A stretch of 64,000 bases of DNA from a plasmid, in sequence record NZ_CP084508.1; one strand, written 5' to 3'. Position numbers and translations under genes: made by a program. The stretch's first letter is position 1; each line of letters opens with the position of its first letter. Below the pieces are notes generated by a model, which saw only the letters and a list, made by a program, of their open reading frames with translations, was not told the origin of the DNA and did no database searches. Of the stretch, positions 42,409-59,300 are shown piece after piece.

Positions 42409-42795
42409 TCACTCATCATCATGCTCACTTGGAAAGAATTTTTCTATAATCTGGCGCACATCTTCAAGAATATCAGACTTCATATTACTATAGACAAACT
42501 TCTCCTTCCCTTGCACGTAAGGGCTTAATGACGCCATCCCCATCACTTTACATATCCCGAACTGTGTTTTAAGAACATTCTCCAACAGGATTTTATTAAA
42601 CTCCATTTGGTTAAACGCAGACTCTTTTCGTTCCATTTGGGCTTCATATACGCGCAACCCCAACTCTAACAGCATAGTAGATATGCTGGAAAAGCTAACA
42701 TCACGCTCTTTCGCCCCCTCTAATCGCCTTGCTTCTACAATCGCATTGATTTTATTAGTAACTTCATCACTTACATACGCCTGAATTTTTGCCAT
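42409..42795 (-). CDS. traM: TraM relaxosome accessory protein
   Basis: MAKIQAYVSDEVTNKINAIVEARRLEGAKERDVSFSS...LLELGLRVYEAQMERKESAFNQMEFNK matches F TraM (127 aa) closely. Confidence 0.9.
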   Translation of the reverse strand: MAKIQAYVSDEVTNKINAIVEARRLEGAKERDVSFSSISTMLLELGLRVYEAQMERKESAFNQMEFNKILLENVLKTQFGICKVMGMASLSPYVQGKEKFVYSNMKSDILEDVRQIIEKFFPSEHDDE

Positions 42796-43233
42796 AGTGA
42801 TAACCTATTTTAGTATCTATACAAAGACATATTTTTCGCCAACAAAAATGACGATTCATGAGCGATTCAATCCTAAAGTCGATTCTAGATTCACCATGCC
42901 AAAATTGCAATTCACTTGACGATTCACTATACGAATTGAATCTAGATTCGATTCGTCAGCAAACCCTTGCTACACCTGATTTGATTCATTTATGAATCGC
43001 TATAGATTCACCAACGAATCGCCAATGATTCATTAATGAATTGCTTTTTATTACATTTTATAAATTACACACTTTTTTCTACAGATAACACCCTGTATTT
43101 ACAGGAAAATCAGCAAAACTTTAGTTTTGCGTAGTGTGTGGTAAAAATGGTAGCAAGGAGCACATATTTAGTTGAGTAGAACATTGGCAGGGTTTACTCT
43201 ATTCAACGTGTCAGCTCATTTGAGAAAATCAAC
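42796..43233. other. oriT: oriT region: arrays of GATTCA/TGAATC repeats (TraM/TraY/IHF-type binding sites) and an F-like nic motif
   Basis: 42840-43075 holds more than 15 copies of gattca/tgaatc in direct and inverted orientation. 43126-43145 (tttgcgtagtgtgtggtaaa) resembles the F nic region TTTGCGTGGGGTGT^GGTGCTTT; the nick is predicted near 43139/43140. Lies between traM and the divergent gene X, as in F. Confidence 0.6.
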
Positions 43234-43707
43234 ATGAAGAAAACCGTCTTATTGGTATTCCTAGCACTCATATCCCCCCCCTCTTTAGCCAATGACTGCT
43301 TTGATCTCGCTGGACGTGACTACCGCATAGATCCTGACTTGTTACGCGCTATCGCCTGGAAAGAATCGAGGTTCAACCCCAGGGCGATTGGTCGTAGCCC
43401 TGATAAAAGTATTGATATTGGGCTTATGCAAATTAACTCTCAACATGCTGATACATTCCGGCCTTTAGGCATCAGCATGCAGCAACTGCATAATGACCCC
43501 TGCCTCAACATCTACACCGGCGCGTATGTCCTCGCTAAAGCCTTTAAAAAGTGGGGGGTGAACTGGAATGCTGTAGGTGCCTATAACGCTGGATTTAAAC
43601 AAACGCGTAAACAGGCCGAAAAACGATACCACTATGCTAAAGATATACATACTTATTACCTGGCCATTAAAAACAGCAAAAACCTCTTGGCCAAAAGCGA
43701 CAGATGA
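43234..43707 (+). CDS. Lytic transglycosylase (F orf169 / gene X / R1 P19 family)
   Basis: Signal peptide, catalytic AWKESRFNPRAIG...IGLMQIN SLT motif, and the YNAG motif. First gene of the leading region next to oriT. Confidence 0.85.
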   Translation: MKKTVLLVFLALISPPSLANDCFDLAGRDYRIDPDLLRAIAWKESRFNPRAIGRSPDKSIDIGLMQINSQHADTFRPLGISMQQLHNDPCLNIYTGAYVLAKAFKKWGVNWNAVGAYNAGFKQTRKQAEKRYHYAKDIHTYYLAIKNSKNLLAKSDR

Positions 43708-43871
43708 TAAAATGCAGCAACATCTGCTGGTCGAAGTTGAATTGACTCACTCACCAGAAACACGGCATCGCCCTTCTTAGCTCATTATCTTCTTCAGACT
43801 AGCTCACTGTCAGTCTGCAGATCATTTTATGATCGTGCACGATAAGTTTAGACAAAGAGAAACGCGTGAAC

Positions 43872-43991
43872 TTATCCACATATCCATAGGTAACAACGCC
43901 AGTGCTGTTTTTCCCCCGACCAGGGGAAAAACAAACGAGAGGCGGATTGATTCGGTAACGAATCAATGGCACCTGTGGAGATGTGGATAAG
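43872..43991. repeat. Inverted pair of perfect DnaA boxes (TTATCCACA) flanking a GC-rich hairpin core
   Basis: TTATCCACA at 43872-43880 and its reverse complement TGTGGATAA at 43983-43991, embedded in ~16-bp imperfect inverted repeats. The core holds the perfect palindrome ttgattcggtaacgaatcaa. Confidence 0.4.
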
Positions 43992-44169
43992 TTTGGAGTC
44001 ATTAGGGCGCCCCCTTTGGGGGCAGATGGGCGGATGCAAATTTATTTTGCATCCGGGTGGGCGGGGGAAATAAGCATTCACGCCTCGATGGTGTGAATGC
44101 TTATCAGGTCGCAAAAATCCGTTGCATCAAAATAAAAATAACATTAATCTAAATATTGAAACAGTAGTA

Positions 44170-44200
44170 ACCTCGCCCCGGATTTGATGGGCGTCAATCC
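44170..44200 (-). terminator. Rho-independent terminator downstream of ardC
   Basis: gccccggatt-tgatgggcgtca-atccggggc hairpin followed, on the minus strand, by a T/A-rich run, 12 bp after the ardC stop. Confidence 0.45.
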
Positions 44201-44211
44201 GGGGCAATATT

Positions 44212-45117
44212 TTATTGCGTTATATCTCTAAGATACTGATGTGCTTTTGATGCTGCACTTGCCGCTTTAAAGATAAAGCGCTTGTCGTTTTTTAACGCGG
44301 CCAACCAGGCGGCAATATAACTCTCATGTTGCACCTCTCCCGACACACCAAGATCAGCCATCAAGAACGCAGCACCTAACTCAGCGATCAACTCCTCATA
44401 AGCATAATCTTTCGACCCGAAGCCCCCTGTCATCTCTCGATTTAAGCGTGCTTTCCCTCCCGTCCAATGAATCAACTCATGTAACCCCGTCGCATAAAAG
44501 TTAGCTGCATCATTAAAACGATGCCGACTGGGTAAAACAATTTCGTCAGTTGATGGGCAAAAATAAGCAGCCGCACCATATTCACGAATACTCGCCCTCG
44601 TTGCTTTAAAAAAAAGCTCAACGTCATCGAACGGTTCAAAATTTTCTTTAGGTGTTTCCTGGGGCGCGATGGTTAAACCATCAACCTGTTCAATATTAAA
44701 GACAGTGAACGATTTCAACACGGGAAAGTTTTCAAGATCACCGTCTTGATTTTCCCTCTCCACCATGGAGTAGAAAAAGGCTGTTGTACCATGCTCACCT
44801 TTACGAACCTGTCCTCCCATTGCTTGCGCCTGCTTGTAGGTTAACCAACGCGTATCTGTATAACCGTTTTTTAATGCACTCCCCCACAGCAGCATAATAT
44901 TCATGCCACGGTATTGGCTGCCTGTCGTAAAATTAATAGGCAATCCTGAGACACCGCGCCTATCCCATGGACACACCCACGGCTTCACCCCCTTTTCAAG
45001 GGCGGCGATAATATTATCGGTGACACGTTGATAGAGGTCTTTTTTCTCACTGTTTCTTTTTTCCTGACATCTTTCAGTAGATTCAGAAGCGGCGGTGTTG
45101 ACGTTTTGTGTGTTCAT
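44212..45117 (-). CDS. ardC: ArdC-type antirestriction protein (N-terminal ssDNA-binding domain plus zincin-like metalloprotease domain)
   Basis: 301 aa with an N-terminal ArdC_N-like region (VTDNIIAALEKGVKPWVCPW) and a C-terminal HExxH (LHELIHWTG) metallopeptidase motif. Confidence 0.75.
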   Translation of the reverse strand: MNTQNVNTAASESTERCQEKRNSEKKDLYQRVTDNIIAALEKGVKPWVCPWDRRGVSGLPINFTTGSQYRGMNIMLLWGSALKNGYTDTRWLTYKQAQAMGGQVRKGEHGTTAFFYSMVERENQDGDLENFPVLKSFTVFNIEQVDGLTIAPQETPKENFEPFDDVELFFKATRASIREYGAAAYFCPSTDEIVLPSRHRFNDAANFYATGLHELIHWTGGKARLNREMTGGFGSKDYAYEELIAELGAAFLMADLGVSGEVQHESYIAAWLAALKNDKRFIFKAASAASKAHQYLRDITQ

Positions 45118-45593
45118 GCTGGGCTACTCCTTTGGATTATTTCAGTCATCTCTCAGTGAGTTCATCGCGGCAATGGGCGAAGGAGCGACGGCAGGCAGGG
45201 CATTGCAAGGGCGCCGTAGGCGTGCATTTCACCCTTGCAATGAACTGAATGACGGTGCTACGCCACGCCCACGCGAGAACACACTGAGTGATGACGTCAA
45301 CCCGACATGCACAGCATGAACACACTCGCCACGTCGAAACGACGTGGCGACCTTAGACGGTCGGCAGTTTTTCGCCGCGCGCCGTTTACGGCGCTGCAAG
45401 CGTGGGGTTTTCCAGCATCGGTTGGCACCCGCAGGGGCGGAGACACGCAAGCGTGGCTCCGTAAGACTTAGTCGGGCGGGTACAGCCCGGCTTAGTCGTT
45501 GCCAGGCGACAGCACGACCGCGTGCGGGCGAGCTGCCCTTGTGGTGCCCCAGGGGGGTAATGTTTTGCTGTTAAGCGGTAACAGGCACAGAGG

Positions 45594-45656
45594 CAGATAG
45601 AGCAGATAGAGCAGATAGAGCAGATAGAGCAGATAGAGCAGATAGAGCAGATAGAA
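45594..45656. repeat. 9-bp tandem repeat (cagatagag) x7
   Basis: Directly visible: six perfect units plus one variant (cagatagaa), non-coding, between psiA and ardC. Confidence 0.9.
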
Positions 45657-45785
45657 TAGCCATCAACACAAGATGGGACAAACGATACAGCCCCGACAGC
45701 AGCTAAATATCATCTGACAAGTCACGCGGATAGGAAAAAGCGGCGCGTCAGCGCCGCCTTGCCCTACGCACCAACGGTGCCGCGT

Positions 45786-46514
45786 TTATTTTGGGGCGTG
45801 CCTTTCCTCACCGTATATCAGTTTGTTCGGCACTATCCAGCGATCGATACCCTGGACAGTACGTGGTGCCGTTTTTGCCGTCTGAGCCATATCCTCCACC
45901 ACGCGCCACAGCGGCTCACCCGGCCAATTACGCCACGCTGACAATGAGGGGAAGCGGCGAGACCAACGCATCAACATACTCTCCAGCTCATACTCAGGCA
46001 CCCCACTGTCAGACCAGCGCGACAACCAGCTACTGACCGTCGCAGGCGTATGAAATGCCAGTGCTATCTCCGCCTGTGCGCCTAACGCCTGCAACGCCCG
46101 CTCATGCAATCTGGCTGCCTTACGACGCTGGCGGGTATATTTTTCGTCCTGCAGGTCATCCTGCCGGCGCTGGCGCTCCTGATGACTAAACGTTACTTCA
46201 GGGAACAGTGCCTGACCGGCATCCACCGGCAATGGTAACCAGCAACACGCGCCCCGGCTCTCAATCAACGTATCGATAGCCTGTAACCAGCGATCTTTCT
46301 GACCGCGTAACTCGCGCTCCGTCAGCACCGGCGCAAAGTACCGCAGTTCGCGCAGCGTGATACGGCGGACACCTCGGAGATGACGGAAAAACGCCTGTGC
46401 ATAGGGATATTTCCCCCGCCCCCGATATGCGCGGGACTCAACATCGGCAATGGCCTGCATGGCTGCCCGACGATCAGCCTGTAGCGGGACAAGCGCCTGA
46501 CTCGTCGCCATCAT
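45786..46514 (-). CDS. psiA: Plasmid SOS inhibition protein PsiA
   Basis: About 240 aa, directly downstream of psiB (overlapping stop/start). The N-terminus SQALVPL...AAM.A.A.V matches F PsiA. Confidence 0.75.
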   Translation of the reverse strand: MMATSQALVPLQADRRAAMQAIADVESRAYRGRGKYPYAQAFFRHLRGVRRITLRELRYFAPVLTERELRGQKDRWLQAIDTLIESRGACCWLPLPVDAGQALFPEVTFSHQERQRRQDDLQDEKYTRQRRKAARLHERALQALGAQAEIALAFHTPATVSSWLSRWSDSGVPEYELESMLMRWSRRFPSLSAWRNWPGEPLWRVVEDMAQTAKTAPRTVQGIDRWIVPNKLIYGEERHAPK

Positions 46515-46942
46515 AGCTCGCCCTCCATCGCCAACAAATCAATGATCGCATTGTGGGAATACCCCTCGGCATCGAGACGCACAATGAGGCCGAGTGTATG
46601 ATTGATAACCTCCGGGCTATAGGCCAGCAATGTGCGAACCACGGCAAAAGGGCGGCCACTGGCAGGGATAAACACCATCATCCAGACAGGGCTAACTTCC
46701 CCAGGGCTGCATACCGCGACATGAAACGCGCCATGAGTCGGGGTGAAACGGACTTGTACCGGGAAGAACCCGCCGAACTCACTGCGATACTCACCGCTCA
46801 TGCTCCACTGTGCTGGCGCGTTCAGGTCACGCATCACCGCATGAGTCAGCGCCCGTCGAAAATCCTCGCCGCTGGCGCGGTAATCTTCCCACTCTGACGG
46901 GATCATGGTTTTCAGGACATCGAGAGTAATAATATTACGCAT
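46511..46942 (-). CDS. psiB: Plasmid SOS inhibition protein PsiB
   Basis: HAVMR.L.AP..W.M.GEY.SEFGGFFPVQVRFTP.H..FH.A.CSPG.VS.VW is highly similar to F PsiB. Confidence 0.9.
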   Translation of the reverse strand: MRNIITLDVLKTMIPSEWEDYRASGEDFRRALTHAVMRDLNAPAQWSMSGEYRSEFGGFFPVQVRFTPTHGAFHVAVCSPGEVSPVWMMVFIPASGRPFAVVRTLLAYSPEVINHTLGLIVRLDAEGYSHNAIIDLLAMEGEL

Positions 46943-46986
46943 AGGTGCTCCTTATTGCCGCCCCGCTACCGGGGCGGCGCAGCAGA

Positions 46987-48951
46987 TCAGGCGGCATCAG
47001 CCGGGTGGATATCAACGTCAACGGCGGTGTCAGCCTTTTCCGGCGAGTGCATCCAACCGGGAACCCAGCGAGTCCCTGACAGCGCCTGTTCGGCGTGCTC
47101 AGCCGCATCGGACTTTTTCATTTTTTCCGCATCACGGGCAGCCCCTGACAGTCCCGCCTCGTTTAACAGGGCGATGATCGAGGGCTTGGGCATATGCATG
47201 AAAAAGTTATCCTTTGTCGGTTGCCACCAGTCGCGTAGATGAAAACCGATCGCCGACTCCAGCGGATCAAGGAGGCTGCGCGTGGTATGGCCATACTCAC
47301 GAGTCTGTACACCATCCACACTACAGGCCGTACAAAAACTCAGTAAGGCGAGTACGTCCTCGCCCGATAGCGAGAAGAACGACGTAACATCACGCTCCCA
47401 CCGTGGGGGTAAACGGCTGGCAAGACGTTCTTTCTCCTGCATCAGCGCCACAAATGCGGTACCGTCCTTTCCGCTGGGGGCGTCCTCCGTCAAACGGCTA
47501 TGGTGACAACTCAAGGAAACCTGAATTGCAGCGTTCCCCACGGTAAAGGCAAAAACACGACGGCACAGTGTCCACGCCAATACCGCAACCGCGCGCTCAG
47601 GCTGCTTCATCAATGCTGCTTGAACAGCCAGCGTTCTCTCCGATGACATTTTGGTAAGTAACGGAAGGCTAACCCCCTCGGCGACATCTGGAGCAGGGGG
47701 AAGAGAGACGAGATCACGGTCAGCATCAACGTCATTATCTCCCTCTTCTTTTAACTGCACTCCCCTCTGCACACAGAGTTGGCCATCAATCAGACTGACA
47801 ACGACACCAGAGGCCGCTTTTTGCTCCGGCGTCCACGCCCGGATTGCGGCGGCACTTTCGATATCCTCGATCAGCACCTGAATGGCCGCCTCGTCCTCAT
47901 ACGTTTCGGTGGCCACCTGTTTGGCATAGAGTTCATCCAGTTGCTGCTGTTCATCGGCGCTATACTGCCCCTCTGGCACGGGTAGCAACAGATACCGCTC
48001 ACGATCCTCGCCATAGTTTTTCAGCGGCATCTCGCGCGCCAGCGACCATGCCCACCCTTCATCCTGTTGAATAGCCTGTGCGGTTGCCGCCAGCTTTTCA
48101 TCGACCAAACGGTCGAGTAATCCCCGATCAGCCGTGCCGCTCCCCTCGATGGCGCTAAACAGATCTTCGCGCACCACCCCGCCCGCCGCTTCATATGCAT
48201 CTCGCCCGATAAGCACAAAACGGGGATCGCCAATGGAGATTTCGGTATCGATGATAGCCCGCTTTAACAAGTGTGCCGGGGCACGGCTGTATTCAGCTTT
48301 CACCTGCTGGTAAATCGCCACCTGACGCGCGGGATCACTCTCTAGACTCAGCGCCTGACACTGCTCCACGTCGATCGTGTTTTCGGCTAAGAGGGCGATA
48401 AGCTCCGGGGCAAGGTTGGCCAGTTTCAGCATGCGCTTGACGTGTAGCGAGCTATACCCCAGCTGGCCACCAATCTGCTCCGGGGTCTTCCCCTGCTCCG
48501 ATAGGGTACGAAACCCGATGATCTGTTCAGCAGGGTGCATCGCCACCCGCTGGCTGTTCTCGGCGACCGAGGCCACTGCCGCCAGTTCATCCGAGACCCG
48601 CTTAACCGCGACCCGGTAATCGGCATCGATACGCTGTTCAGCACACAACAGTTGCAGGGCGGTCAGGCGACGGCCTCCGGCAGCCACGCCCAACAGACCA
48701 TCGGGCAACGCGTGAACCACCAGATTTTGCAACAGCCCGATGGCGGCGATGGTGTCGGCCAGCTCACGTACACTCTCCACCGGATACGGGATGGTACGGA
48801 CGTTCAGCGGGGATTTGACCAGTGCCGACAGCGGCACCATTTCAATCTGCGCTGCCTCAAGGGCGGCTTTCAGGGCGGCAGCGTCGGCAGACTTGACGCT
48901 TTTTTTGCTGGCTCTGGCAGGGGATTTTGCTTTAGACTCGGTTACTGACAT
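46987..48951 (-). CDS. ParB-like nuclease-domain protein of the leading region
   Basis: The N-terminal ParB/Sulfiredoxin-type domain (VPLSALVKSPLNVR...GLLQNLVVHALPDG...GGRRLTALQL) is followed by an HTH-like segment and a long acidic C-terminal region. Start is chosen at the ATG at 48949-48951 with a GAGGAG RBS; the ORF is open to 49029. Confidence 0.65.
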   Translation of the reverse strand: MSVTESKAKSPARASKKSVKSADAAALKAALEAAQIEMVPLSALVKSPLNVRTIPYPVESVRELADTIAAIGLLQNLVVHALPDGLLGVAAGGRRLTALQLLCAEQRIDADYRVAVKRVSDELAAVASVAENSQRVAMHPAEQIIGFRTLSEQGKTPEQIGGQLGYSSLHVKRMLKLANLAPELIALLAENTIDVEQCQALSLESDPARQVAIYQQVKAEYSRAPAHLLKRAIIDTEISIGDPRFVLIGRDAYEAAGGVVREDLFSAIEGSGTADRGLLDRLVDEKLAATAQAIQQDEGWAWSLAREMPLKNYGEDRERYLLLPVPEGQYSADEQQQLDELYAKQVATETYEDEAAIQVLIEDIESAAAIRAWTPEQKAASGVVVSLIDGQLCVQRGVQLKEEGDNDVDADRDLVSLPPAPDVAEGVSLPLLTKMSSERTLAVQAALMKQPERAVAVLAWTLCRRVFAFTVGNAAIQVSLSCHHSRLTEDAPSGKDGTAFVALMQEKERLASRLPPRWERDVTSFFSLSGEDVLALLSFCTACSVDGVQTREYGHTTRSLLDPLESAIGFHLRDWWQPTKDNFFMHMPKPSIIALLNEAGLSGAARDAEKMKKSDAAEHAEQALSGTRWVPGWMHSPEKADTAVDVDIHPADAA

Positions 48952-49057
48952 GATTAAACTCCTCAGTTTTATGATTGTCCGCCGGACAGCCCACCTGTCC
49001 GGCACCTCTGCTAACTTACCCAGCCCCACAACTCGCGGGGTGTATTCATCAGGTCAT

Positions 49058-49603
49058 TCAGAACGGAATGTCATCTATCGGCGGATAATCCTGCTGTGAC
49101 GGCTGCGGCGCTTGCTGAGAGGGCGCAGCGCTCTGACGGCCTTTTTTACCCCCCTTTGCTTTCGTGGACTTTGTCGGGGCATCAACGGGTTGTGCCGGGG
49201 TTTGCTGTTGTGTGGACTGCTGCGAAGCCGTGCTTTGTGACTGGCCACCGTCACGACGACCGCCCAGCATCTGCATGGTTCCGCTCTGACTCACCACGAT
49301 CTCGGTAACATAGCGAGTCACGTTGCTATCATCCTGCCAGCTACGAGTACGCAACTGGCCCTCGATATAGATCTGCGCCCCTTTTTGTAAATATTCCCCA
49401 GCAATCTCCGCGAGATTGCCGAACACCACCACACGGTGCCATTCTGTTTTTTCACGCGTCTCTCCGGTCTGCTTGTCGCGCCACGTATCCGAAGTGGCCA
49501 GCGAGAGATTGGCGACTGCGCCCCCATTGGGCATATAGCGGATTTCGGGATCTTGTCCCAGATAGCCGACGAGGATGACTTTGTTGATGCCACGTACTGT
49601 CAT
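49058..49603 (-). CDS. ssb: Plasmid single-stranded DNA-binding protein SSB
   Basis: [84 protein letters not shown]...DIPF: an OB-fold with the acidic DIPF tail. Confidence 0.95.
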
Positions 49604-49636
49604 GATGAATCCCCTTCTGTTTGTTTTGCCTTTAAA

Positions 49637-50400
49637 AACCATCACCCGTTGAGTTACGAGAGCCGCGGTTTTGACGTTTTGCGGGAGCCTGCTGTTTTGT
49701 TCCCGGTGGTATGACCTTCACCCGTTTGAGAACCTTCGCCGCAAGGGCGTAAACGAGCACGGCCCGGCGCCGCTGTCCGGGGTGAGCGGTCAATTTTTTA
49801 CGGTCTAATGGAGCAACGCGGAATGGCCGGAGAAAATTTATCGCGAAAGGCGCTGCCGTCCCTGGACTGCAAGGCGGGTTGTGCTTGTCTCAGCCCAGGC
49901 GAAAGGGACTTAAACGGTGAAATGGCACCCGGAATGATAATGAGCAGGAGCCCGCCGCAACGACGGAGCGCGGCACGCGAAACGGCGTTGCCCCGAAGAA
50001 GCCCGGCAGGTTCACCGCCGGGCTGGTGAAAGCGGCGCGACCGAACAGGTCGCAGCAAGCGAGGTGTTGACGTTGCGACATGGGATGGAAACCCGCTGCC
50101 CCGCAGGGGCCGGGCAGAGACAGCGTAGCTGGCTCTGTGCGCAGCATGACAGCCCGGTTCCCGCAGGGAAGTCGCCCGGTGTTAATGGCGTTACAAAAGG
50201 AATTCGACTGAGAAGAATAAGCGCCGTAACCATAGTGGCCATAACCCGACGCAAAGAAACCGACGTAGCCAGCTCACCACCGATACAACGACACATTGCC
50301 AGCCCAGGAAACGGACGCGAACGGAGGGGAGCGGCGCGTAGCGCAGCACCCTCCGGCGCCGCAGGCGCGCGGCTTTTTGTGGCGCGGCCAGACAGAAACA
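49637..50400. repeat. GC-rich structured ssDNA-promoter (Frpo/ssi-type) element, copy A, immediately upstream of ssb
   Basis: A ~760-bp non-coding GC-rich segment, ~90% identical over most of its length to 52871-53565. It contains TTGACG -35-like hexamers (gaggtgttgacgttgcgacatgggatgg) inside long imperfect hairpins. Confidence 0.55.
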
Positions 50401-50429
50401 CCTGTGCTCCTGCCTGGCCCCTATGCCTA

Positions 50430-50993
50430 TCAAAGCCTTATTTTGATCAGGGAGGTTGAAACAGCAGTATAGGTAAACGTACCGCGCGGCAATGGCTCCC
50501 AGACATCACATAACGGTTGCAGGGTGCTCTGTTGTCGAGGCCCATTAAGGCAGATTGCGACGAGTACGCCGCCGGGGGCGAGCAACGTTACCGCGTGCTG
50601 TATGTGGCGGATATCCTGGGCATGATGAAACGGTGGATTCATCAGGATCTTGTTGTAGCGTGTTTCCGGTTGGTACGTCAGAAAATCACCGCACCAAACG
50701 TTAACGCCCGGAAAGCTCGCCCGTAGATGTGCGGCTAACGCCGCGTTAAGCTCCACGGCATCACACCGCGCCAGCGGAGCAGCCTCCCGGACAGCCCGCA
50801 AGATAGCGCCCGTTCCCGCGCTTGGCTCAAGAATGCTATCAGCCGCTGTAATCTCTGCCAGCTCGACAAGTTGATTACAGACCGGATCGGGCGTGACGAA
50901 AAGCTGTGAACTGGCCCCAATTTCGGTAACAGGGGATCGCCCGTCCAACCTGGCCCGCATTGCTTGAATACGGTGCCTCAATTCGCTATGCAT
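50430..50993 (-). CDS. SAM-dependent N6-adenine/N4-cytosine DNA (or rRNA) methyltransferase, orphan (NPPF motif)
   Basis: The SAM-binding motif I (ILEPSAGTGAILRA) is followed by the motif IV NPPF of N6-amino methyltransferases. No adjacent restriction gene. Confidence 0.6.
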   Translation of the reverse strand: MHSELRHRIQAMRARLDGRSPVTEIGASSQLFVTPDPVCNQLVELAEITAADSILEPSAGTGAILRAVREAAPLARCDAVELNAALAAHLRASFPGVNVWCGDFLTYQPETRYNKILMNPPFHHAQDIRHIQHAVTLLAPGGVLVAICLNGPRQQSTLQPLCDVWEPLPRGTFTYTAVSTSLIKIRL

Positions 50994-51041
50994 GGTGACA
51001 TCGTCCTTATCTCCCCGGCGATAAGCCGGGGAGCCTGATGG

Positions 51042-52418
51042 TTATTTTTGCGGGATTTCAACGAGTTTCATGTCGGTGATAAACACCGTCTCAAGCGTGC
51101 AGCCGCTGCCCAAAACACGGCGATAGCGGTAGGCCCCATGCTCGTCATTTTCCGCCACGCTCCGGACTCCTTTATAATCAGGCGGGGTTTTAGCCCATTC
51201 GGCCTTGGTCATCCCCCGGAAGCCCTCGCCCGGATAGTTGACGATGGGCGGCCGTTTTGCGGCGCTCTTCGCGGCGCTGGCCTCTTCAACCGATGGGGCT
51301 TTGTAGTCCGTAATGCGATCAGGGGTGAGTTTCATCGTTCCACCGTAACCAAGGAAGCGATAGCACGGCGTCTCCACGGAGCTGACTACCCCATTACGTT
51401 TATTGACCCGGATAATGCTCAGCCACTCACCCCGGCTCTGCACCTGCCCACCCACCTCGAACGCCTGCGCCTGAGAAACGACGCTACCGCTTTCATCCAG
51501 CATGGCACGCTCATAGGCCAGGCGATTACGGTAATGCGTCGCCCAGCGCTGCTGATGGCGGATCGTTCGCTCATGAACACGAACCGCAATAGTGCGGGCT
51601 TGCTCAAAAGTAATAATTTCCTCACCCAGCGCGGAATACAGGGACATTCGCCCCTCATACTGGCTTTTATCTGCCGGGCGTGGGTACTTGTCCAAGGTAA
51701 AACAGGCCGAGATATGATCGTGACTGCTGACAAGTCGCGCCATGTTGAGATCAAGCGTTTCCGCGCGCCACATCGTCAGATATTTCTGCGACTGAGCAAG
51801 GGTCTTTTCTACCTTGCGCAAGTCCGCCTCAATCTTTTTGATGCGGCGGTAGCGTACATCCGGGCGCTCTTTGTTTTTCGCATGAGCCAGAGACGCCCGC
51901 GCGCGATCTTCCCAATATTCGGCACGCTCAAACAGCATTACGGCGCGCTTCATTCCGTCTTCAATTTTTTTCGCATTCCGGCGCGCACGGCGTTCGCTGT
52001 GATGCCCGACCAGAATCGGCTGGCCGAATGGGATAGCCGATACCAGCGCATCAACCTGTGCGAGTACCTGCTCAGACTCACCGGCGCGCTTATCACTGTA
52101 ACCACTAAAACGCTCCGCCCGTTGCTGTTGACGGTCTAGCAAGGTGCTGTCCTCATCTTCAATATCTCCGGCCAACGATAAGAGCAGATCTTCACGGCAG
52201 GGCGTCCAAGCCGGCGCAACAAATAATTTCTGTTTCGGTGCCCAGCGGAAGCCCAGATCATGGAGTTTTTTATAGGTTTCCTCATCGAGGCGCTGCGTGG
52301 CATACAGGCGCAATTTGTTGTCGTCCGGGGAGTAGGTTGCACGGTAGGTCTGGCCGTAAACCTCTTCAGCAACAGCCTGGTGGATCATCTCGGCACTGCG
52401 TGCTGGTGCAGTGATCAT
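51042..52418 (-). CDS. Conserved leading-region hypothetical protein (possibly DUF3560-like), function unknown
   Basis: 458-aa hydrophilic protein with no recognisable catalytic motif. It is co-oriented with ssb and transcribed from the copy-B hairpin element. Confidence 0.35.
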   Translation of the reverse strand: MITAPARSAEMIHQAVAEEVYGQTYRATYSPDDNKLRLYATQRLDEETYKKLHDLGFRWAPKQKLFVAPAWTPCREDLLLSLAGDIEDEDSTLLDRQQQRAERFSGYSDKRAGESEQVLAQVDALVSAIPFGQPILVGHHSERRARRNAKKIEDGMKRAVMLFERAEYWEDRARASLAHAKNKERPDVRYRRIKKIEADLRKVEKTLAQSQKYLTMWRAETLDLNMARLVSSHDHISACFTLDKYPRPADKSQYEGRMSLYSALGEEIITFEQARTIAVRVHERTIRHQQRWATHYRNRLAYERAMLDESGSVVSQAQAFEVGGQVQSRGEWLSIIRVNKRNGVVSSVETPCYRFLGYGGTMKLTPDRITDYKAPSVEEASAAKSAAKRPPIVNYPGEGFRGMTKAEWAKTPPDYKGVRSVAENDEHGAYRYRRVLGSGCTLETVFITDMKLVEIPQK

Positions 52419-52469
52419 GATTTTTTCTCCTTCCTGCGGTTGCCGCCCCTTAAGGGGCGGCTCACCTCA

Positions 52470-52700
52470 TCAGTTAAATGCGCGTTTCAGTTCAAGGGTG
52501 CGGAGCAGCTGCCCAAAGGCCGCGTTATTCATCGCGGGGATGTGTACCCCGCGCCCCTTGCGGATACGTTTTGCGATATGCCGCCCGAAAGCCTTTACGG
52601 CGGGGTCGATCTCCGGTGCGGAAATATCGGCCCGCTTGATACGCCTATGACGACGGGGCTTTACAGTCCCGGCGGAAGGTGAAATAATGCTTAATGTCAT
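52470..52700 (-). CDS. Small basic hypothetical protein (76 aa)
   Basis: ORF directly downstream of Frpo-like copy B, ending ~50 bp before the 51042..52418 start. Basic composition (many R/K). Confidence 0.3.
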   Translation of the reverse strand: MTLSIISPSAGTVKPRRHRRIKRADISAPEIDPAVKAFGRHIAKRIRKGRGVHIPAMNNAAFGQLLRTLELKRAFN

Positions 52701-52870
52701 ATAGTTAACTCCTAGTAGTTAATGAAGCTGTGAACACCGCTGGAACGGTTTTCACGACGTGGATTAAGCAGGGGTTTCCCCTGCTTTTTTCATATCTACG
52801 GTTTACGCTGTGGGTTGTCTGCCTCCTTAACGCTGATCGCGTTCCTCTGTTTTCTCTCAAGTTTTTAAAG

Positions 52871-53565
52871 AACATCACCCGTTGAGTTACGGGAGCCGCG
52901 GTGTTGACGTTTCGCGGGGGCCTGCTGGTTGTTCCCTCCGGTACTACCATCACCCGTTTGAGAACCTTCGCCGCAAGGGCGTAAACGATCACGGGCGATG
53001 GCCGCTGTCTAGGGCGCGGTTTACCGCGTGCTATTTACCCTGGACAGCGGATAGCGACTGTGATTGTCTCAGCCCAGGCGAAAGGGGCTTAAACGGGGGA
53101 GAGGCACCGATGCGGCAACGAGCAGGAGCCCGCCGCAACGACGGAGCGCGGCACGCGAAACGGCGTTGCCCTGAAGAAGCCCGGCAGGTTCACCGCCGGG
53201 CTGGTGAAAGCGGCGCGACCGAACAGGTCGCAGCAAGCGAGGTGTTGACGTTGCGACATGGGATGGAAACCCGCTGCCCCGCAGGGGCCGGGCAGAGACA
53301 GCGTAGCTGGCTCTGTGCGTAGCATGACAGCCCGGTTCCCGTAGGGAAGTCGCCCGGTGTTAGTGGCGCCACAAAGGGAATTCAGCCGACAGGAGCAAGC
53401 ACCATAGTGGCCATAACCCGATTCAAAGAAACCGACGTAGCCAGATCACCGCCGATACAATGACACATTGCCAGCACAGGAAACGGACGCGAACGGAAGG
53501 GAGCGGCGCGTAGCGCGGCACCCTCCGGCGCCGCAGGCGCGCGGTCTTTTGTGGCACGGCGAAAC
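52871..53565. repeat. GC-rich structured ssDNA-promoter (Frpo/ssi-type) element, copy B
   Basis: Homologous to 49637-50400: the same ends (aacatcacccgttgagttacg... to ...ccctccggcgccgcaggcgcgcgg) and the same TTGACG-containing hairpin core. Confidence 0.55.
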
Positions 53566-53598
53566 AGGGGAAGATGGCCTCCCCCCGCAGTCACTAAC

Positions 53599-54027
53599 TT
53601 AATCGAGCGCAGCATAAATAGCGTCACATTCGGGATGGAACTCGATATAGCTCCAAAGCTGGGTATCCCGCTGTATATACAGCTCGGTCAGCGCGGTATT
53701 ACCGCAATCGTGCTGTGTCCAGCAACGGCGATTGATGGCAAGAGATGTCAGGATGATACCCGCCGCCTCGGCACTAATGGTACGATCAAACCAGTTTTCG
53801 CCGTTGATCATATGCACCTTGCCGCAATCCGGCATCATGAAGCCGCCCCCGTCAGGCAAGCGGATAAAGTGCCAGAATCCCCCCTCATATTCCGGTATCA
53901 GCTTTCTGGCCAGTGCGTACACCTGCAATTCAGCCAGCATGAAATCATCGCCGAACAGATACGGCAGGAAAGACAAACGGTCGGACTCTTCGACGTTCAG
54001 GGTGTGCCGATAGGCTGCATACTGCAT
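53599..54027 (-). CDS. Antirestriction-family protein (ArdB/KlcA/Antirestrict-like) of the leading region
   Basis: 143-aa acidic protein (MQYAAYRHT...) in the position occupied by antirestriction genes in IncF leading regions. Start is the ATG at 54025-54027 with a strong GGAGG RBS. The family call is tentative. Confidence 0.45.
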   Translation of the reverse strand: MQYAAYRHTLNVEESDRLSFLPYLFGDDFMLAELQVYALARKLIPEYEGGFWHFIRLPDGGGFMMPDCGKVHMINGENWFDRTISAEAAGIILTSLAINRRCWTQHDCGNTALTELYIQRDTQLWSYIEFHPECDAIYAALD

Positions 54028-54059
54028 GATAAACCTCCGCAATCACAAATGACGCGACA

Positions 54060-54300
54060 CCGGGCGGTGCCGTGCATCCATAACAGCCGGGTGAAAAAGC
54101 CGGGGATACAAGGGCGCTAGGGAAGCCGCAGCCTGACGCGCACGGCAGACGGGAGCTGGAGGGTGAGGCCGCGAAACCTGAACGGACGAACGACCGGAAG
54201 ATCACGGCAGACGTGAAGGAAGGACCGGGTGACCGCAGCGGCGTTAGCGAACCCTTGTATCCACGGTGGCCCGGCTACGATGGATGCACGGCACAGCCCG
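54060..54300. repeat. Long imperfect inverted repeat (about 55-bp arms, ~125-bp spacer) upstream of the antirestriction gene; third ssDNA-promoter-like hairpin
   Basis: ggcggtgccgtgcatccataacagccgggtg...ggggatacaagggcgct pairs with agcgaacccttgtatccacggtggcccggctacgatggatgcacggcacagcccg, a near-perfect reverse complement. Confidence 0.4.
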
Positions 54301-54474
54301 CAGACGGCACCGGGTCGGCAGAGTGGAAAATCATCAGGCAACGTCCTACAGGGACGGGGCCGCCAAAAAAGCGGAGCTGGCGACATCCTTCGAGTATTGG
54401 GAGGATTCAGGGGATCGCCCCCCGGCAGTTGACTACGGGGGGCTGGATCACACCGCCGGCGCGGCGTGGGGATT

Positions 54475-54894
54475 TCAGTTTTTCAGTAAAGCGCGCACTT
54501 TAGCCGCATCAGCCAAGCGACGGGTAACACTTTCCGGCACTGGATGGTTATTATCCCGAGCCGCCCACTCTCTGCACCGTAGAGCCTGTTCTGCGGTCGT
54601 CAGCAGGGTTTCAAGCAAGTCAGCCGGTACCATCACCGCCGGAACAGCCTGTTTCACCTGATCGATCAGCTCCATTACCGCCTCGCAAGACACGCCAGAT
54701 TCAAGCAGCTGCTCTTCTGATATGGTATCAATGCGCTCCAGTACCTCCCTAATGGCTTGTTTAGAAAGGGCATAGTCCATTCCGTCGATCAGCGCTTCGA
54801 TATTCTCCGGGGACCAGACAATCAGGTTCAGAGGGGTTTCAGCGGGATATTGCTCTTTCAGCAGCCGGCAAAGGGTTTCACGAGTTCCAAACAT
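54475..54894 (-). CDS. Hypothetical acidic protein (139 aa), leading region
   Basis: ORF with a plausible start; no recognisable motifs. Sits between the DPPY methyltransferase and the antirestriction gene. Confidence 0.35.
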
Positions 54895-54951
54895 ACTTTC
54901 TCTCCGTTGATTCTGTCATGCGGCACTGCCGCCCAAGGTCAGATCAGCGTC

Positions 54952-55632
54952 TCACGCCGCCTCTGGATAAAAGACGTCATTGGCGGCCGGGCGCTGTATG
55001 GCTCGCTGTACGGCTGACAAGCGCTCAATGCCGGCTTTGTGGTACTGCTCCATCAGCTCGATACCGATATAACGGCGGCCTGACTGGAGGGCCGCCACGC
55101 AGGTAGAGCCTGAGCCAGCAAAGGGGTCGAGAACAATGGCGTTCGGACGTGTGAGCGACTCAATCAGTGGTTGCAGGCTGGTAACGGGCTTCTCGGTCGG
55201 GTGGTGACGGTTGCCTGAATATTTCCAGCCCAACACATCCGGTAGTGGGTTTTGGGGTAGTGATGGGCGGCCTTTCGCCAGAACATAAGCACATTCATGG
55301 CGATAACCGACATAAACGGTTTTCGATGTGTAGGTTTTGGTGAACACCAGATGCCCGACAACGCTAAATCCGGCTGCTTTCCATGCTGCCATAAAGCGAT
55401 CGATGTGGTTCCAGCCGTAGAAGCTGACCATCAGCGCGTCTTTTTTCAGTACGCGATACATCTCATGGCAGGCGGGTTGCAGCCATTCATCGGTTTTGTC
55501 ACCGGCAATAGTACGCCCGGAACGGTCACAAAACCCCACTAGATACGGTGGGTCAGTCAAGATGAAATCGACGGCGGCCGCAGGAAAACCGGCCATAATA
55601 TCGACGCAATTCCCCAGAATAAAACGGGACAT
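54952..55632 (-). CDS. Orphan DNA N6-adenine (or N4-cytosine) methyltransferase with a DPPY motif
   Basis: FILTDPPYLVGF (motif IV DPPY) near the N-terminus and DPFAGSGSTCVAA (motif I) near the C-terminus, a beta-class amino-MTase arrangement. No cognate restriction gene. Confidence 0.75.
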   Translation of the reverse strand: MSRFILGNCVDIMAGFPAAAVDFILTDPPYLVGFCDRSGRTIAGDKTDEWLQPACHEMYRVLKKDALMVSFYGWNHIDRFMAAWKAAGFSVVGHLVFTKTYTSKTVYVGYRHECAYVLAKGRPSLPQNPLPDVLGWKYSGNRHHPTEKPVTSLQPLIESLTRPNAIVLDPFAGSGSTCVAALQSGRRYIGIELMEQYHKAGIERLSAVQRAIQRPAANDVFYPEAA

Positions 55633-56306
55633 AAGGACACCTCGCAGGTACAAGGGGCATCCAGGAGGGCGCCACCACGGTGCCCGTTCCCTGCTGCCCG
55701 TAGCCTGTACGCCGCGACCGGCAACGGGTCAAGCTGACCGTGGAATATCGCAACCGTCGGTATTTTGACGGCGAGAATATGCCGCGAAAGCGGCTTGAAG
55801 GGCATTCCTTAAAAGGCGAGTGGACGGCGTAAAATTACACCGACGCCGGACAGGAGCGGAAAAGTCGCCCGCCCCGTGTCCGTCCGGTCGAGGCAGACTG
55901 GCTACGGGCAGTGGATATCCCCGCGCAACACGCGGCATGAATGAGGAGCCATGCAACAACATCCTAGCGTGACTGCTCCCTGCCCTGTCGGGCGAGGGTT
56001 TACGGCGTTTTTCGCTCATTAAAGAGATAGGAATCAATATTCGCGACTATTGCTGGATGACTGAGCAAAAAGCATCCGAGAATGAGATAAGATATTTAAT
56101 TATATTAGATAAATACTTGAACTAAGCATTATCATCTCTGCCTTGCAGAAGGCAATCATTGACTATATTCACACTGTCAAATGTTAATCCTTACCTATTG
56201 TATAAATTGCTAATATATTGACATAATTACAAGAATGTAGACTTTACAGTAAAACACCTGTAACTCATTAGTTATCATTTGTTAAACAATAGGAGGTTTT
56301 CATACT

Positions 56307-59300
56307 ATGGTTAAATCAAACATAACTAATATATTTGCCCTTAGTGTTATCGCTATGAGCATACAAATAGCCATTGCCGAGCCAATTACTTTTTCTGATG
56401 GGGGAAATCATAAGCTTATCAATCAGGATATAAATAATAAAGGTTATGATTATAAAAACGTATTAGACATCAGTAATGGTACAACAGTTTCACTGGATGA
56501 TTCAAATGTCACAGTTTCTGGTGTTTACTCCAAAGGGGTAAATACCACATCAGGAGCCCATACACAGATAAATAACTCCTATTTGGTTAGCCAAGGTCAA
56601 GGGAGTTTTTCTGTAAGTTCAATGGATGGTGGACATACTACGATAAAAAATGCCACGATCGCCTCTAAGGATAATGGATATGGCGGACTTTTGAGTAATG
56701 GGAAAAACTCCACTATCAACGTTGATCTTAGCATAGTATCAGTCACATCATCCGGTCAAGAAACAGTAAACACTGCGGGAGCTATTGCCGAAAATAATGG
56801 CAAACTATCAATTAATATTAGTGATGTAAAAACAAAAGGTAATTATTCATCAGCACTATTTGCTCAATCGACAGGAAAAATAGCAGCTCAATTAACAAAC
56901 TTAGAAACACAAGGTGACTATAGTTCTACTATTGCGGCGAATACAAACAGCAACATTTCAATAGTAACAGGTAGTATTTTAACTAATGGAAATGAATCTC
57001 ATGGTGCTATTGCTACAAGTGGTAGTTCAGTATCATTAACTAATGCGGAGATAAAAACAACCGGGGCTAGTCACGGCATTTATTCCATTGGCCCCAAAAC
57101 TAAAGTGATACTCGATAACAGCCAAGTCAGTACTGAGCATCAACTCTCTAGTGCCATTGCGATCCAGGATGGTGGTAATCTAATTAGTAATAATAGTAAT
57201 ATATCCACCCAAGGAAATGGTAGCTATGGGGTATTGGCTCGTGGGAAAAACTCTTCAGCAGAGCTGAAGAATATACAGATCTCAACAAAGGGCAATACTC
57301 ATAACGACGTTTCAGCTAACGCTATTGTTAGTGAGTTCGGGAGCCATATAGATCTTAATGGTCAAAATCGAATACAAACACATGGTACATCTGCTTACGG
57401 AATTCTCGCTCAGTTATCGGGTAATAGTGGTGATACATCAGTCACTGTTCAAGGCCACTCTGATATTATTACTCATGGTGAGCATGCCTCTGCCCTATCC
57501 TCTTGCGCGTTAACTGGTGGCCGAGATTGTACAACCGCCTTTAATCATGGCATTGACGGAACAAATTCTGTAGATAATGCATTGATCGTAGGGTCAGGAA
57601 TTAATGCGCTCACAGAAGGGAAAGATGCACATGGTGCTTATGTTAATGGTAAACAAGCCAAGATTACTCTCGAGAATAGTGTGCTAAAAACACGCGGTGT
57701 CGGTGGGCATGGCGTAGCTATTCGAGGTGGTGAAGGAATTATTTCACATTCTACTATCCATGCTGGCGGTGATGATGCCCACGGCGTTGCCTTTTATAAT
57801 GGAGGTAGTCTGAAATTATCGGATGCATCTGTCATATCCCAGAGAGGCAGCGCTCTTCACATTAATGGAGATCTGAGTAGTGCTACTGCAGATATCACTA
57901 TCAGTAATAGTAATATCAGGGGTAAAGATAATGCCATTAATGCGAAATCAGGAAAAACCAATATTGCTTTGTCTCAATCCAACCTATCTGCGGAAGATAA
58001 CACTCTAATTAATACAGACAAAGGAGATGTATCTGTCCATGCAGAAGAAAGTTTATTGAATGGCAAAGCATTAAGCTTAGGCAGTGGACATCTTAACATG
58101 GCTCTAACTCAGAATAGCCAGTGGGAAAATGCAGCTGGATCTTTTATAAGTGGTCTGAGTTTAGTTAATAGTGACCTACATTTTTCTACGAGAGATACTT
58201 CTACCCCCAATGGTAATGTAACCGTTGATGGTAATCTATACGTTAATAATGGTACACTTTATTTTAATGGCGTATTAAATGGTGATGACTCAGCAGTAAA
58301 TAAACTTATTGTTCGAGGAAATAGTGATGGTAAGGGATGGGTTAATGTCACCAATGTTGGCGGAGTTGGAGAGAAGACTATTAATGGGATTGAGCTAATA
58401 AAAGTTGAAGGAAACTCCTCTGCTGATTTTCAGCAAACAGGTCGTATTATCTCTGGGGCATATGACTATCATTTAAACCGTGGTCAAGGGAAAAACCAAT
58501 CTAACTGGTATCTGACGAACACTTTAGAACCAGGAGGAGATGCGATCGTTCGTCCAGAAGGTGGTAGCTACATAGCTAATATTGCTGCAGCCAACACGTT
58601 ATTTAATATGTCATTACATGATCGACTTGGGGAAACTGAGTATGTCAATGCTTTTACTGGAGAAAAGCATGCGACAAGTCTATGGTTACGCCAAGTCGGT
58701 GGGCATACTGCAGCAAAGGACAGTTCCGGACAATTAGATATTCAGAGCAACCGCTATTTAATTCAATTAGGTAGCGATCTTGCACACTGGTTCGGTCCAA
58801 ATCAGCAACGTTATCACTTAGGTGTAATGGGTGGCTATGGATATAGCCATAGCAATACACAGTCAACAAAATCAGGATATCAGGCTAAAGGCTCTGTTAA
58901 TGGCTATAGTGTAGGACTATATGGTTCATGGTTTGAAAATGGGAAAAATAAACCAGGTGCTTATTTAGATAGTTGGTTACAATATAGTTGGTTTAACAAC
59001 CAAGTGAAGGGGGAACAAACCTCCCCTCAAAATTACCATACTCATGGTTGGAGTGCATCATTAGAAAGTGGTTATACATTAAACTTGGCTAATTATCATA
59101 CTGAATATGGTAGCGTAAATAGTTGGTATCTACAGCCACAAGCTCAAATAACCTGGATGGGTATTAAGCAAGGTCGTCTACAAGAAGAGAATGGTACAAC
59201 CATAAACCATGCTAATACGAACAATATCCAAACACGTTTGGGGGTAAGAACTTTCTGGAGAGGGCATAGTATTCATGATCAAGGAAAAGATCGTGAGTTT

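Follow-up and report, generated by a model that had tools for sequence, protein, structure and literature searches.

What does a plasmid place in the stretch of DNA that enters a recipient first, and how could the genes there be expressed while the incoming DNA is still single-stranded? The question is raised by positions 43234-55653 of a 64000-nucleotide (nt) stretch of the plasmid sequence record NZ_CP084508.1 (hereafter the window; coordinates refer to it, and + denotes the strand as given), in which a sequence-only reading had seen an anti-defence island behind the origin of transfer (oriT). Our analysis indicates that this region is very probably the leading region of an F-like (IncFII, MPF_F) Edwardsiella plasmid, acting as a zygotic-induction cassette. 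The core of the earlier description, a leading region behind oriT in which establishment and anti-restriction genes dominate and the units are led by hairpins, is upheld, and these hairpins are homologous to F promoters. Both the architecture and the gene families have already been published, and the region is no new variant. It matches more than 5000 plasmid records; the top match is Edwardsiella tarda pEh-Pc1 (NZ_CP023707; typed IncFII/MPF_F), with 94% identity over the whole length, followed by plasmids of E. anguillarum and E. piscicida. The pEh-Pc1 plasmid and the ∼91-kb plasmids of E. anguillarum share 93-95% nucleotide identity with the window over the whole island, with the same genes.

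The position and polarity of the region follow from its left border. The traM gene lies directly to the left, as do FinP/traJ signals, and the 438-nt gap between traM and the first open reading frame (ORF) can be aligned with the F oriT over both the inverted repeat near nic and the conserved block next to it. The alignment retains ACGCAAAA..TTTTGCTGATTTT..GTGTTAT, and the nic-region motif GCGTAGTGTGT^GGT, also alignable with the F oriT, is found at 43129-43142 (+). The nick position within the F motif, which we take as established, would put the nick (GTGT^GG) at 43139/43140 of the + strand. Since the nick is placed on the + strand, the + strand is the predicted transferred strand, and the sequence to the right of the predicted nick is the part predicted to enter the recipient first; the region thus lies next to the nick on the first-transferred side, the + strand running 5' to 3' into it. 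At the other end, near 56050, an autotransporter gene starts and G+C decreases from ∼0.57 to ∼0.34; this drop and an ssp3-type hairpin (see below) mark the distal end of the island.

Out of the 13 genes in the region, 12 are on the - strand and are templated by the transferred + strand (Table 1). The earlier statement that every gene lies on the same strand holds for these 12 and fails for the first ORF of the range, which encodes an SLT lytic transglycosylase; this gene alone does not use the transferred strand as its template, and it has the same opposite orientation in F and in pEh-Pc1. None of the 13 ORFs is disrupted, and all have the full length of their homologues. Several listed ORFs begin too early: the starts at 48951, 54027 and 55632 were corrected by alignment with the F proteins, and the start of SSB (single-stranded DNA-binding protein), probably MTVRGINKV at 49603, was set by reading its N-terminus. 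Long + strand ORFs antisense to the genes (e.g. 51048-52139 and 53551-54120) had zero Pfam matches and were dismissed as spurious. The gene classes that had been named from the sequence (ArdC, PsiB/PsiA, SSB, a ParB-like protein, DPPY and NPPF methylases and an antirestriction protein) are all present by Pfam. The three ORFs described as hypothetical also exist where they had been placed, but they are not without families: they encode a DUF3560 protein, a DUF1380 protein and a YdaB-family protein. YdaB, DUF1380 and DUF3560 are families 1, 7 and 28, respectively, in the list of leading-region-enriched families of Samuel & Burstein 2024 (Supplementary Table 1; PMC11541004).

Table 1. Genes, hairpins and other features in and next to the leading region (end coordinates in parentheses are those of the listed ORFs; positions with a locus number refer to that locus, L001 being the one of pEh-Pc1)
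Feature	Position	Strand	Evidence and remarks
traM	42409-42795	-	Pfam Tra_M 1.9e-54
oriT nick region (predicted)	43113..43148	+	Inverted repeat GCAAAACTAAAGTTTTGC, then GCGTAGTGTGT^GGTAAAAATGG
SLT lytic transglycosylase (F orf169/gene 19 equivalent)	43234..43707	+	Pfam SLT 4.1e-28
Branched hairpin	43869..43993	+	Inverted repeat I4; 13-bp perfect outer stem
ArdC	44212..45117	-	Pfam ArdcN 7.8e-42, MPTase-PolyVal 4e-45
Leader cassette site, window	45070-45325		
Leader cassette sites, other loci	L001 3980-4885, 5557-5925; L003 2144-2518; L004 1111-1518; L006 1054-1518		
Leader cassette sites, L007-L011	Genes ending at locus position 1218		
Compact Frpo-type hairpin	45107..45325	+	Free energy (dG) -86.8 kcal/mol; upstream of ArdC
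psiA	45786-46514	-	Pfam PsiA 3.9e-29; SOS inhibition
psiB	46511-46942	-	Pfam PsiB 2.5e-50; SOS inhibition; overlaps psiA by 4 nt
ParB-like YfjB/HerB homologue	46987..48951 (49029)	-	Pfam ParB_N, HTH_ParB
Plasmid SSB	49058..49603 (49645)	-	Pfam SSB 4.1e-39
Frpo/ssp1-type element, copy 1	49631..50395	+	Main hairpin about 49653-49985; upstream of ssb - herB-like - psiB - psiA
TaqI-like N6-adenine methyltransferase (NPPF methylase), 187 aa	50430..50993	-	Pfam MTS/N6_Mtase
DUF3560 protein, 458 aa	51042..52418	-	Pfam DUF3560 4.3e-37
YdaB-family protein, 76 aa, basic	52470..52700	-	Strong ribosome-binding site AGGAG
AS-pc01-like antisense RNA	52695..52789	+	Rfam RF02875; covers ydaB start codon, ribosome-binding site and 5' untranslated region
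Frpo/ssp1-type element, copy 2	52864..53567	+	Main hairpin about 52889-53175; upstream of ydaB - DUF3560 - NPPF methylase
KlcA/ArdB-type antirestriction protein	53599..54027 (54042)	-	Pfam Antirestrict 6.8e-29
ssp2-type (class 2) hairpin	54061..54300	+	Inverted repeat I2; upstream of klcA/ardB
DUF1380 protein, 139 aa	54475..54894	-	Pfam DUF1380 5.8e-73
DPPY N6-adenine DNA methylase	54952..55632 (55653)	-	Pfam N6_N4_Mtase 8.8e-39
ssp3-type (class 3) hairpin	55694..55911	+	Inverted repeat I3; upstream of DPPY methylase

Five units can be distinguished among the genes, and in front of each there is a hairpin on the transferred strand. That a long hairpin precedes each transcription unit, as had been noted from the sequence, is borne out by the folding of the five intergenic gaps: with the + strand folded as single-stranded DNA (ssDNA), all are far more stable than dinucleotide shuffles, with z-scores of -8.6 (45118-45785), -4.0 (49646-50429), -7.1 (52701-53598), -5.8 (54043-54474) and -5.2 (55654-56100). 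In a 300-nt sliding fold scan, four hairpin regions pass the criterion of less than -75 kcal/mol taken from PMC12672017. At each hairpin peak the + strand folds more stably than the - strand, the difference ranging from a few to about 17 kcal/mol; selection for G-T pairs on the transferred strand would be expected to have this effect.

The hairpins fall into all three known classes of single-strand promoters and are homologous to elements of F in each class. The two large class 1 (Frpo/ssi) elements are 82% identical to each other over ∼760 nt and share ∼70% identity with F Frpo1/Frpo2 over 350-400 nt (E-values of 1e-36 to 1e-45); the ssb gene together with its upstream Frpo element (window 49264-49994) shares 72% DNA identity with the corresponding F stretch. 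For class 2, the gap 54043-54474 aligns with the region upstream of the F klcA/ardB homologue (named yfgB in bioRxiv 10.64898/2026.01.09.698686) with a mean column identity of 84%. For class 3, the mean column identity between 55654-56150 and the region upstream of the F methylase is 77% over the whole alignment and clearly higher in the hairpin core. The F single-strand promoters homologous to these hairpins have been validated experimentally (PMC9849209, PMC12672017), and the starts of class 2 (klcA/ardA-type) and class 3 (M.EcoGIX-type) promoters, which are conserved in F, were mapped by 5' rapid amplification of cDNA ends in pESBL (PMC12672017). These two classes are also named ssp2 and ssp3, and ssp2 additionally stalls second-strand synthesis (bioRxiv 10.64898/2026.01.09.698686). 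The window thus offers a compact catalogue, with all three promoter classes within 12.5 kb and each with a clear cargo.

The likeness to the F leading region (NC_002483, about 53.8-66.2 kb) extends to its position by oriT/traM, its orientation rule, the SLT exception and the gene order, methylase - DUF1380 - KlcA/ArdB - (Frpo) - SSB - YfjB/HerB - PsiB - PsiA - (Frpo) - ... - SLT. The three hairpin classes (Frpo1/Frpo2, i.e. ssp1a/b, ssp2 and ssp3) are found at the same relative places. The architecture had been called F/ColIb-like with a different gene complement; some genes do differ, but eight out of 13 have F counterparts in the same order: the methylase (86% identity), DUF1380, KlcA/ArdB (73%), SSB, YfjB (53%), PsiB, PsiA and SLT. 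As for the differences, the window has ArdC where F has flm (hok/sok), ygeA and ygeB (DUF932), it has an additional Frpo-driven unit (ydaB - DUF3560 - NPPF methylase) between klcA and ssb, it lacks DUF905/yfjA and has a single DUF1380 copy, and its oriT-side promoter is a compact Frpo variant of ∼215 nt. The region also resembles the anti-defence islands described by Samuel & Burstein (Nature 2024, PMC11541004) in its clustered genes for anti-restriction, SOS inhibition, orphan methylases and SSB, in the transferred-strand template and in its Frpo-like promoters. Unlike those islands, it has no recognisable anti-CRISPR, toxin-antitoxin or umuDC boundary and ends at the sharp drop in G+C. The pEh-Pc1 plasmid differs as well: a second hairpin-leader cassette drives a gene for a 122-amino-acid (aa) protein between ArdC and psiA, and DUF905/yfjA lies between the ParB-like gene and ssb (window 49009-49035 vs L001 9815-10094). 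DUF3560 is not annotated in the pEh-Pc1 record.

Two of the conserved genes deserve a comment on their identity. The ParB-like protein, 654 aa when counted from Met27 of the listed ORF, shares 53% identity with F YfjB over 652 aa, i.e. its full length, and has PDB matches to the N-domains of Spo0J/Noc/ParB. It combines a ParB N-domain with a GxxRxxA box, a helix-turn-helix and a long C-terminal module; the box is conserved as GGRRLTAL, which we take to be the CTP-binding box from what is generally known of ParB proteins. F YfjB has been described as HerB, not a nuclease but a ParB-like factor that binds CTP, attaches to the chromosome of the recipient and reprograms transcription in the host (PMC13370423); the earlier label 'ParB-like nuclease' is probably misleading. 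The distal methylase (NCBIfam PRK13699, 471 bits), an N6_N4 methylase with a DPPY motif behind a class 3 hairpin, is a homologue of the M.EcoGIX-type leading-region methylase of F and pESBL.

Taken together, these features suggest the following sequence of events. After nicking at the predicted site, the + strand would pass into the recipient with its 5' end first, and in five stretches it would form long, imperfectly paired hairpins mimicking sigma-70 promoters in double-stranded DNA. Host RNA polymerase would start on the hairpins and transcribe towards oriT, so that five transcripts could be made before the complementary strand exists: one for the M.EcoGIX-like methylase and DUF1380, one for KlcA/ArdB, one for YdaB, DUF3560 and the TaqI-like methylase, one for SSB, the HerB-like ParB protein, PsiB and PsiA, and one for ArdC. 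Their products may act on the incoming DNA by methylating or coating it, prevent type I restriction, keep the SOS response down and adjust host physiology. Second-strand synthesis, possibly primed with the help of a hairpin near oriT that holds DnaA boxes (43869-43993), would destroy the hairpins and turn the genes off. A conventional double-strand promoter at ydaB would then make the antisense RNA AS-pc01, which should keep ydaB silent.

The fifth hairpin lies upstream of ArdC. The ArdC protein has an ssDNA-binding N-domain and a C-terminal zincin metallopeptidase domain with HELIH (an HExxH motif), and it matches the R388 ArdC structures 6I89/6SNA (E-value 1.7e-66) from query residue 24 onwards; the preceding 23 residues form an N-terminal extension, the shared leader MNTQNVNTAASESTER discussed below, which R388 ArdC lacks. 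The start codon and the ribosome-binding site of ArdC are within the 5' arm of the hairpin, and 45070-45370 folded alone has a z-score of -10.3. Relatives of the hairpin occur in 398 plasmid records. In an alignment of 10 plasmids from eight genera, 91.6% of cells are paired, and compensatory double changes are found in 22 out of 56 pairs, compared with 11.3 ± 1.8 in shuffles (none of 500 reaches 22) and 6-9 in slid controls. The 3' arm carries two conserved blocks about 18 nt apart, CACCCTTGCAA (-35-like) and GGTGCTAC (TG plus -10-like), the second of which abuts an internal loop. Since canonical hexamers were not found by scanning, promoter blocks were assigned by conservation only. Read as a -35 and a TG-extended -10 on the non-template arm, they would give a 55-65-nt leader transcript that includes the ArdC ribosome-binding site AAGGAG.

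We considered whether the ArdC hairpin represents a fourth, new promoter class and rejected this. It shares with class 1 Frpo elements the blocks GTGCATTTCACCC-TTGCAA (TGGACA in Frpo) and GGTGCTAC (shared as GGTG-CT), the flanking motif GCGGTKTTGACGTTT and, in some relatives, an A/T-rich apical palindrome; because of these common features we treat it as a putative compact class 1 variant.

The flanking motif itself shows an unusual distribution. GCGGTKTTGACGTTT is found at 45092-45106, 49665-49679, 50061-50075, 52898-52912 and 53239-53253, i.e. five occurrences where 0.18 are expected, all of them on the transferred strand and, in the window, only inside Frpo-type elements. It sits in the 5' untranslated region at the two large Frpo copies, but within the coding leader of ArdC. 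Another repeat, a perfect tandem array of seven copies of (GCAGATAGA), was found by Tandem Repeats Finder at 45593..45655, between the ArdC hairpin and the end of psiA.

The N-terminal extension of ArdC is not confined to ArdC. The first ∼16 residues (MNTQNVNTAASESxERW) are common to unrelated proteins encoded downstream of the compact hairpin: ArdC here, both ArdC and the 122-aa protein of pEh-Pc1, and, with lengths of 90-330 aa, proteins of Rahnella, Enterobacter, Serratia, Pantoea, Arsenophonus, Erwinia and Klebsiella. These proteins fall into at least six unrelated families, ArdC included, and their genes also share the ribosome-binding site and the upstream Frpo-type hairpin. The leader, with the consensus M-N/H-T-Q-N-V-N/K-(V-K)-T-A-A-x-E-S-x-x-R-W, is found by tblastn in about 496 plasmid records, with individual E-values that are weak. 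F YgeA starts with MSTRNIHVNTAS, a diverged version of the leader written in different codons. We tentatively propose, while giving it somewhat less than an even chance, that the compact Frpo-type hairpin, the ribosome-binding site, the start codon and ∼16 codons make up a portable cassette, placed before at least six unrelated families in at least nine enterobacterial genera. If so, the shared leader would be a functional module, e.g. a translation-initiation enhancer for transcripts made from ssDNA or a common N-terminal tag, as well as a recombination joint for cargo swapping, and leading regions may exchange cargo through the shared promoter-plus-leader cassette. In pEh-Pc1, two cassette copies flank the gene for the 122-aa protein; the window has one copy and lacks this gene. 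Comparison of the stretches involved (window 45068-45593 vs L001 4850-5377 and 5876-6400) is consistent with loss of the gene and one hairpin copy by recombination between the two cassette copies.

Among the three ORFs described as hypothetical, the DUF3560 gene is the largest, and domain fusion provides the main clue to it. DUF3560 has 2645 database relatives; fusion was assessed in 149 family representatives, one per 50%-identity cluster. In 101 out of the 149, and in 92 of the 94 with at least 600 aa, DUF3560 is fused to a C-terminal domain homologous to the NPPF methylase of the window; NPPF is present in 95 of the 101 fusions, and fused forms are also found among close relatives (e.g. P0062, 63% identity to the window methylase). 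The NPPF methylase consists of a catalytic domain only, with EPSAGTG as the S-adenosylmethionine-binding motif I and NPPF as motif IV; its best PDB match is to residues 22-109 of the 421 residues of M.TaqI, and at 187 aa, with the catalytic part alone aligned, it shows no target-recognition domain of its own. Given the fusion in most relatives and a methylase that lacks a recognition domain, we propose DUF3560 as the missing partner. The two proteins are best read as halves of one split enzyme, with DUF3560 as the non-catalytic half that probably supplies DNA binding, targeting or oligomerisation. DUF3560, among the commonest unexplained leading-region proteins, would then probably be the DNA-handling half of a split orphan adenine methylase.

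A similar arrangement is known from polyvalent proteins, whose methylase modules carry an uncharacterised domain on the N-terminal side (Iyer et al. 2017, PMC5512222). The NPPF methylase has PHROG matches to methylase domains inside giant polyvalent proteins, and the enzyme is of the same TaqI/EcoKI-like adenine methylase type as that of the polyvalent-protein methylases and phage P1 DarB (PMC5512222); unlike these, the window enzyme has no helicase partner and is split into two genes. One DUF3560 relative carries the polyvalent-protein domain LPD29, and DUF3560 has no match to any LPD family in Pfam. The structure predictions made for the hypothetical proteins with AlphaFold2 were of uneven quality: the DUF3560 model is confident, with a predicted local distance difference test (pLDDT) score of 81.9, and shows a long helical hairpin, which corresponds to the Pfam domain, with small alpha/beta and beta-rich domains on its flanks, whereas the DUF1380 model is too poor to be used (pLDDT 57). 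Matches of DUF3560 to solved structures are limited to generic coiled coils, and for none of the three ORFs did PDB, NCBIfam or PHROGs yield an informative annotation in sequence searches. A small perfect G+C hairpin, GCCGCCCCTTAAGGGGCGGC, at 52440-52465 (-) in the 51-nt spacer between ydaB and DUF3560, could be an attenuator or an RNA stabiliser.

DUF1380 (442 database clusters) is co-oriented with the DPPY methylase and begins 57 nt after the methylase stop, the same position as in F. The poor quality of its model is attributed to the available homologues, all of which are at least 76% identical. DUF1380 is as likely to be an accessory of the single-strand methylase as it is to be an independent inhibitor.

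The YdaB family is represented by 154 cluster representatives, nearly all exactly 76 aa long and, among those listed, 70-100% identical. The C-terminal half is highly conserved to invariant and carries a weak signature resembling HU domain 1: PF14908 (HU-CCDC81) is weakly matched by 27 out of 29 YdaB members (best E-value 1.1e-5), and the window protein matches residues 18-56 of the domain-1 profile with 23.2 bits, below the cut-off of 26.1 bits. A search of PDB with the YdaB profile did not find HU/IHF. YdaB is not assigned here to HU/IHF (DNABII); the match is sub-threshold, and the protein is too short for beta-arms.

The start of ydaB is covered by a match to AS-pc01, an antisense RNA family named for plasmid pHK01. 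The match is full-length (positions 1-99; 63.4 bits, E-value 5e-11); its promoter (52660-52688) is sigma-70-like, TTTACA-17-AATAAT with TG, and its terminator (52766-52786) has an intact stem. We treat it as a putative diverged homologue. Because its template is made only in the recipient, AS-pc01 could shut ydaB off after conversion to double strand. YdaB is the largest unexplained leading-region family, and with AS-pc01 zygotic induction would have a second off-switch. Apart from AS-pc01, the Rfam search found no family in the island, hok/sok and STAXI included.

Are the three uncharacterised ORFs then independent new inhibitors, each acting against restriction, CRISPR or SOS? All three use the transferred strand as template and follow single-strand promoters, their families rank with the most abundant of those enriched in leading regions, their neighbours are known anti-restriction or anti-SOS factors, and no solved or annotated homologue was found. 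We nevertheless regard this as doubtful, since similarity to known anti-CRISPR (Acr) or Ard proteins was not found either, and each ORF has features that fit another role at least as well. With DUF3560 fused to the neighbouring methyltransferase in two thirds of the representatives, and the methylase devoid of a recognition domain, this pair looks like one two-part enzyme; the proposal of the sequence-only reading, which nominated the ORFs as anti-defence candidates by association, is too coarse for a protein that usually forms a single polypeptide with the methyltransferase next to it. In F as in the window, DUF1380 comes after the DPPY methylase, which fits an accessory role equally. YdaB, basic, 76 aa long, with an HU-like half-domain and dedicated antisense control, is more like a nucleic-acid-binding or regulatory factor.

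The hairpins, too, may be explained differently, as structural or replicative ssDNA elements (priming sites, roadblocks, terminators or recombination hot-spots), with the genes using ordinary double-strand promoters. Frpo transcripts can prime DNA synthesis and ssp2 is a replication roadblock in F (bioRxiv 10.64898/2026.01.09.698686); the window, compared with pEh-Pc1, looks like the recombination product of two hairpin copies; and a canonical sigma-70 hexamer pair was not found in the hairpins by scanning. But in F the priming and roadblock roles come on top of promoter function, and deletion of Frpo1 or Frpo2 abolished early expression. The promoter scan gave no convincing - strand sigma-70 promoter ahead of the units (overall it found 13 promoters, not above the shuffle expectation of 10.2 ± 3.6), and the ArdC-type hairpin has its two invariant blocks at promoter-like spacing in the would-be non-template arm, with the -10-like block abutting the internal loop. 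We therefore consider it improbable that the hairpins are not promoters. Still less credible, indeed very hard to reconcile with the state of the region, is the idea that the plasmid has ceased to conjugate and the region has decayed to a non-functional remnant: the closest relative, pEh-Pc1, is typed 'non-mobilizable' by MOB-suite, two genes present there (DUF905/yfjA and that for the 122-aa protein) have been lost from the window, and an unrelated low-G+C autotransporter gene abuts the island, but all 13 ORFs are intact, the hairpins keep their pairing, and traM, the oriT motifs and the signals of FinP and traJ have been preserved.

Several points weigh against the interpretation of the region as a leading region that acts as a zygotic-induction cassette. 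Given the MOB-suite typing of pEh-Pc1, it cannot be taken for granted that the lineage is proficient in transfer. In 300-nt windows, the Frpo copy ahead of ssb reaches only -62 to -70 kcal/mol, just short of the criterion, and a linear scan of four Frpo elements of the window and F found no canonical -35/-10 pair on the transferred strand; the promoter activity and timing that we ascribe to the hairpins are deduced from sequence and folds. The AS-pc01 match lies under the Rfam gathering score (63.4 vs 79 bits). As to the anti-defence label, the literature shows such activity for some families only (ArdC, KlcA/ArdB and orphan methylases), and HerB, SSB and PsiAB are better called factors of establishment or host physiology than inhibitors of defence.

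Overall, the region provides a good Edwardsiella example of a published architecture, but an ordinary one. The three leads concerning DUF3560, ydaB and the leader cassette overturn no current view; they would fill gaps in the understanding of plasmid establishment, which is relevant to the spread of antibiotic resistance.

Two further features are located at the borders of the island. The 64-kb window has just two perfect DnaA boxes (TTATCCACA). Both are near oriT, in the stem of the branched hairpin at 43869-43993, which is some 730-850 nt away from the predicted nick; the fold of 43708-44211 has a z-score of -8.3. A DnaA box present as duplex in the stem of a single-strand hairpin is what is seen in an A-site, which assembles the ABC primosome (DnaA-DnaB-DnaC) on ssDNA (PMC6127211); by this analogy, the hairpin may be an A-site, a single-strand initiation signal at which the complementary strand is primed. 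The island is directly adjoined at its distal end by a gene for a 1072-aa AIDA-type autotransporter (56307-59525, +; G+C 0.34-0.43), with an Autotransporter beta-domain and an autochaperone, at a place where pEh-Pc1 has parA-family genes.

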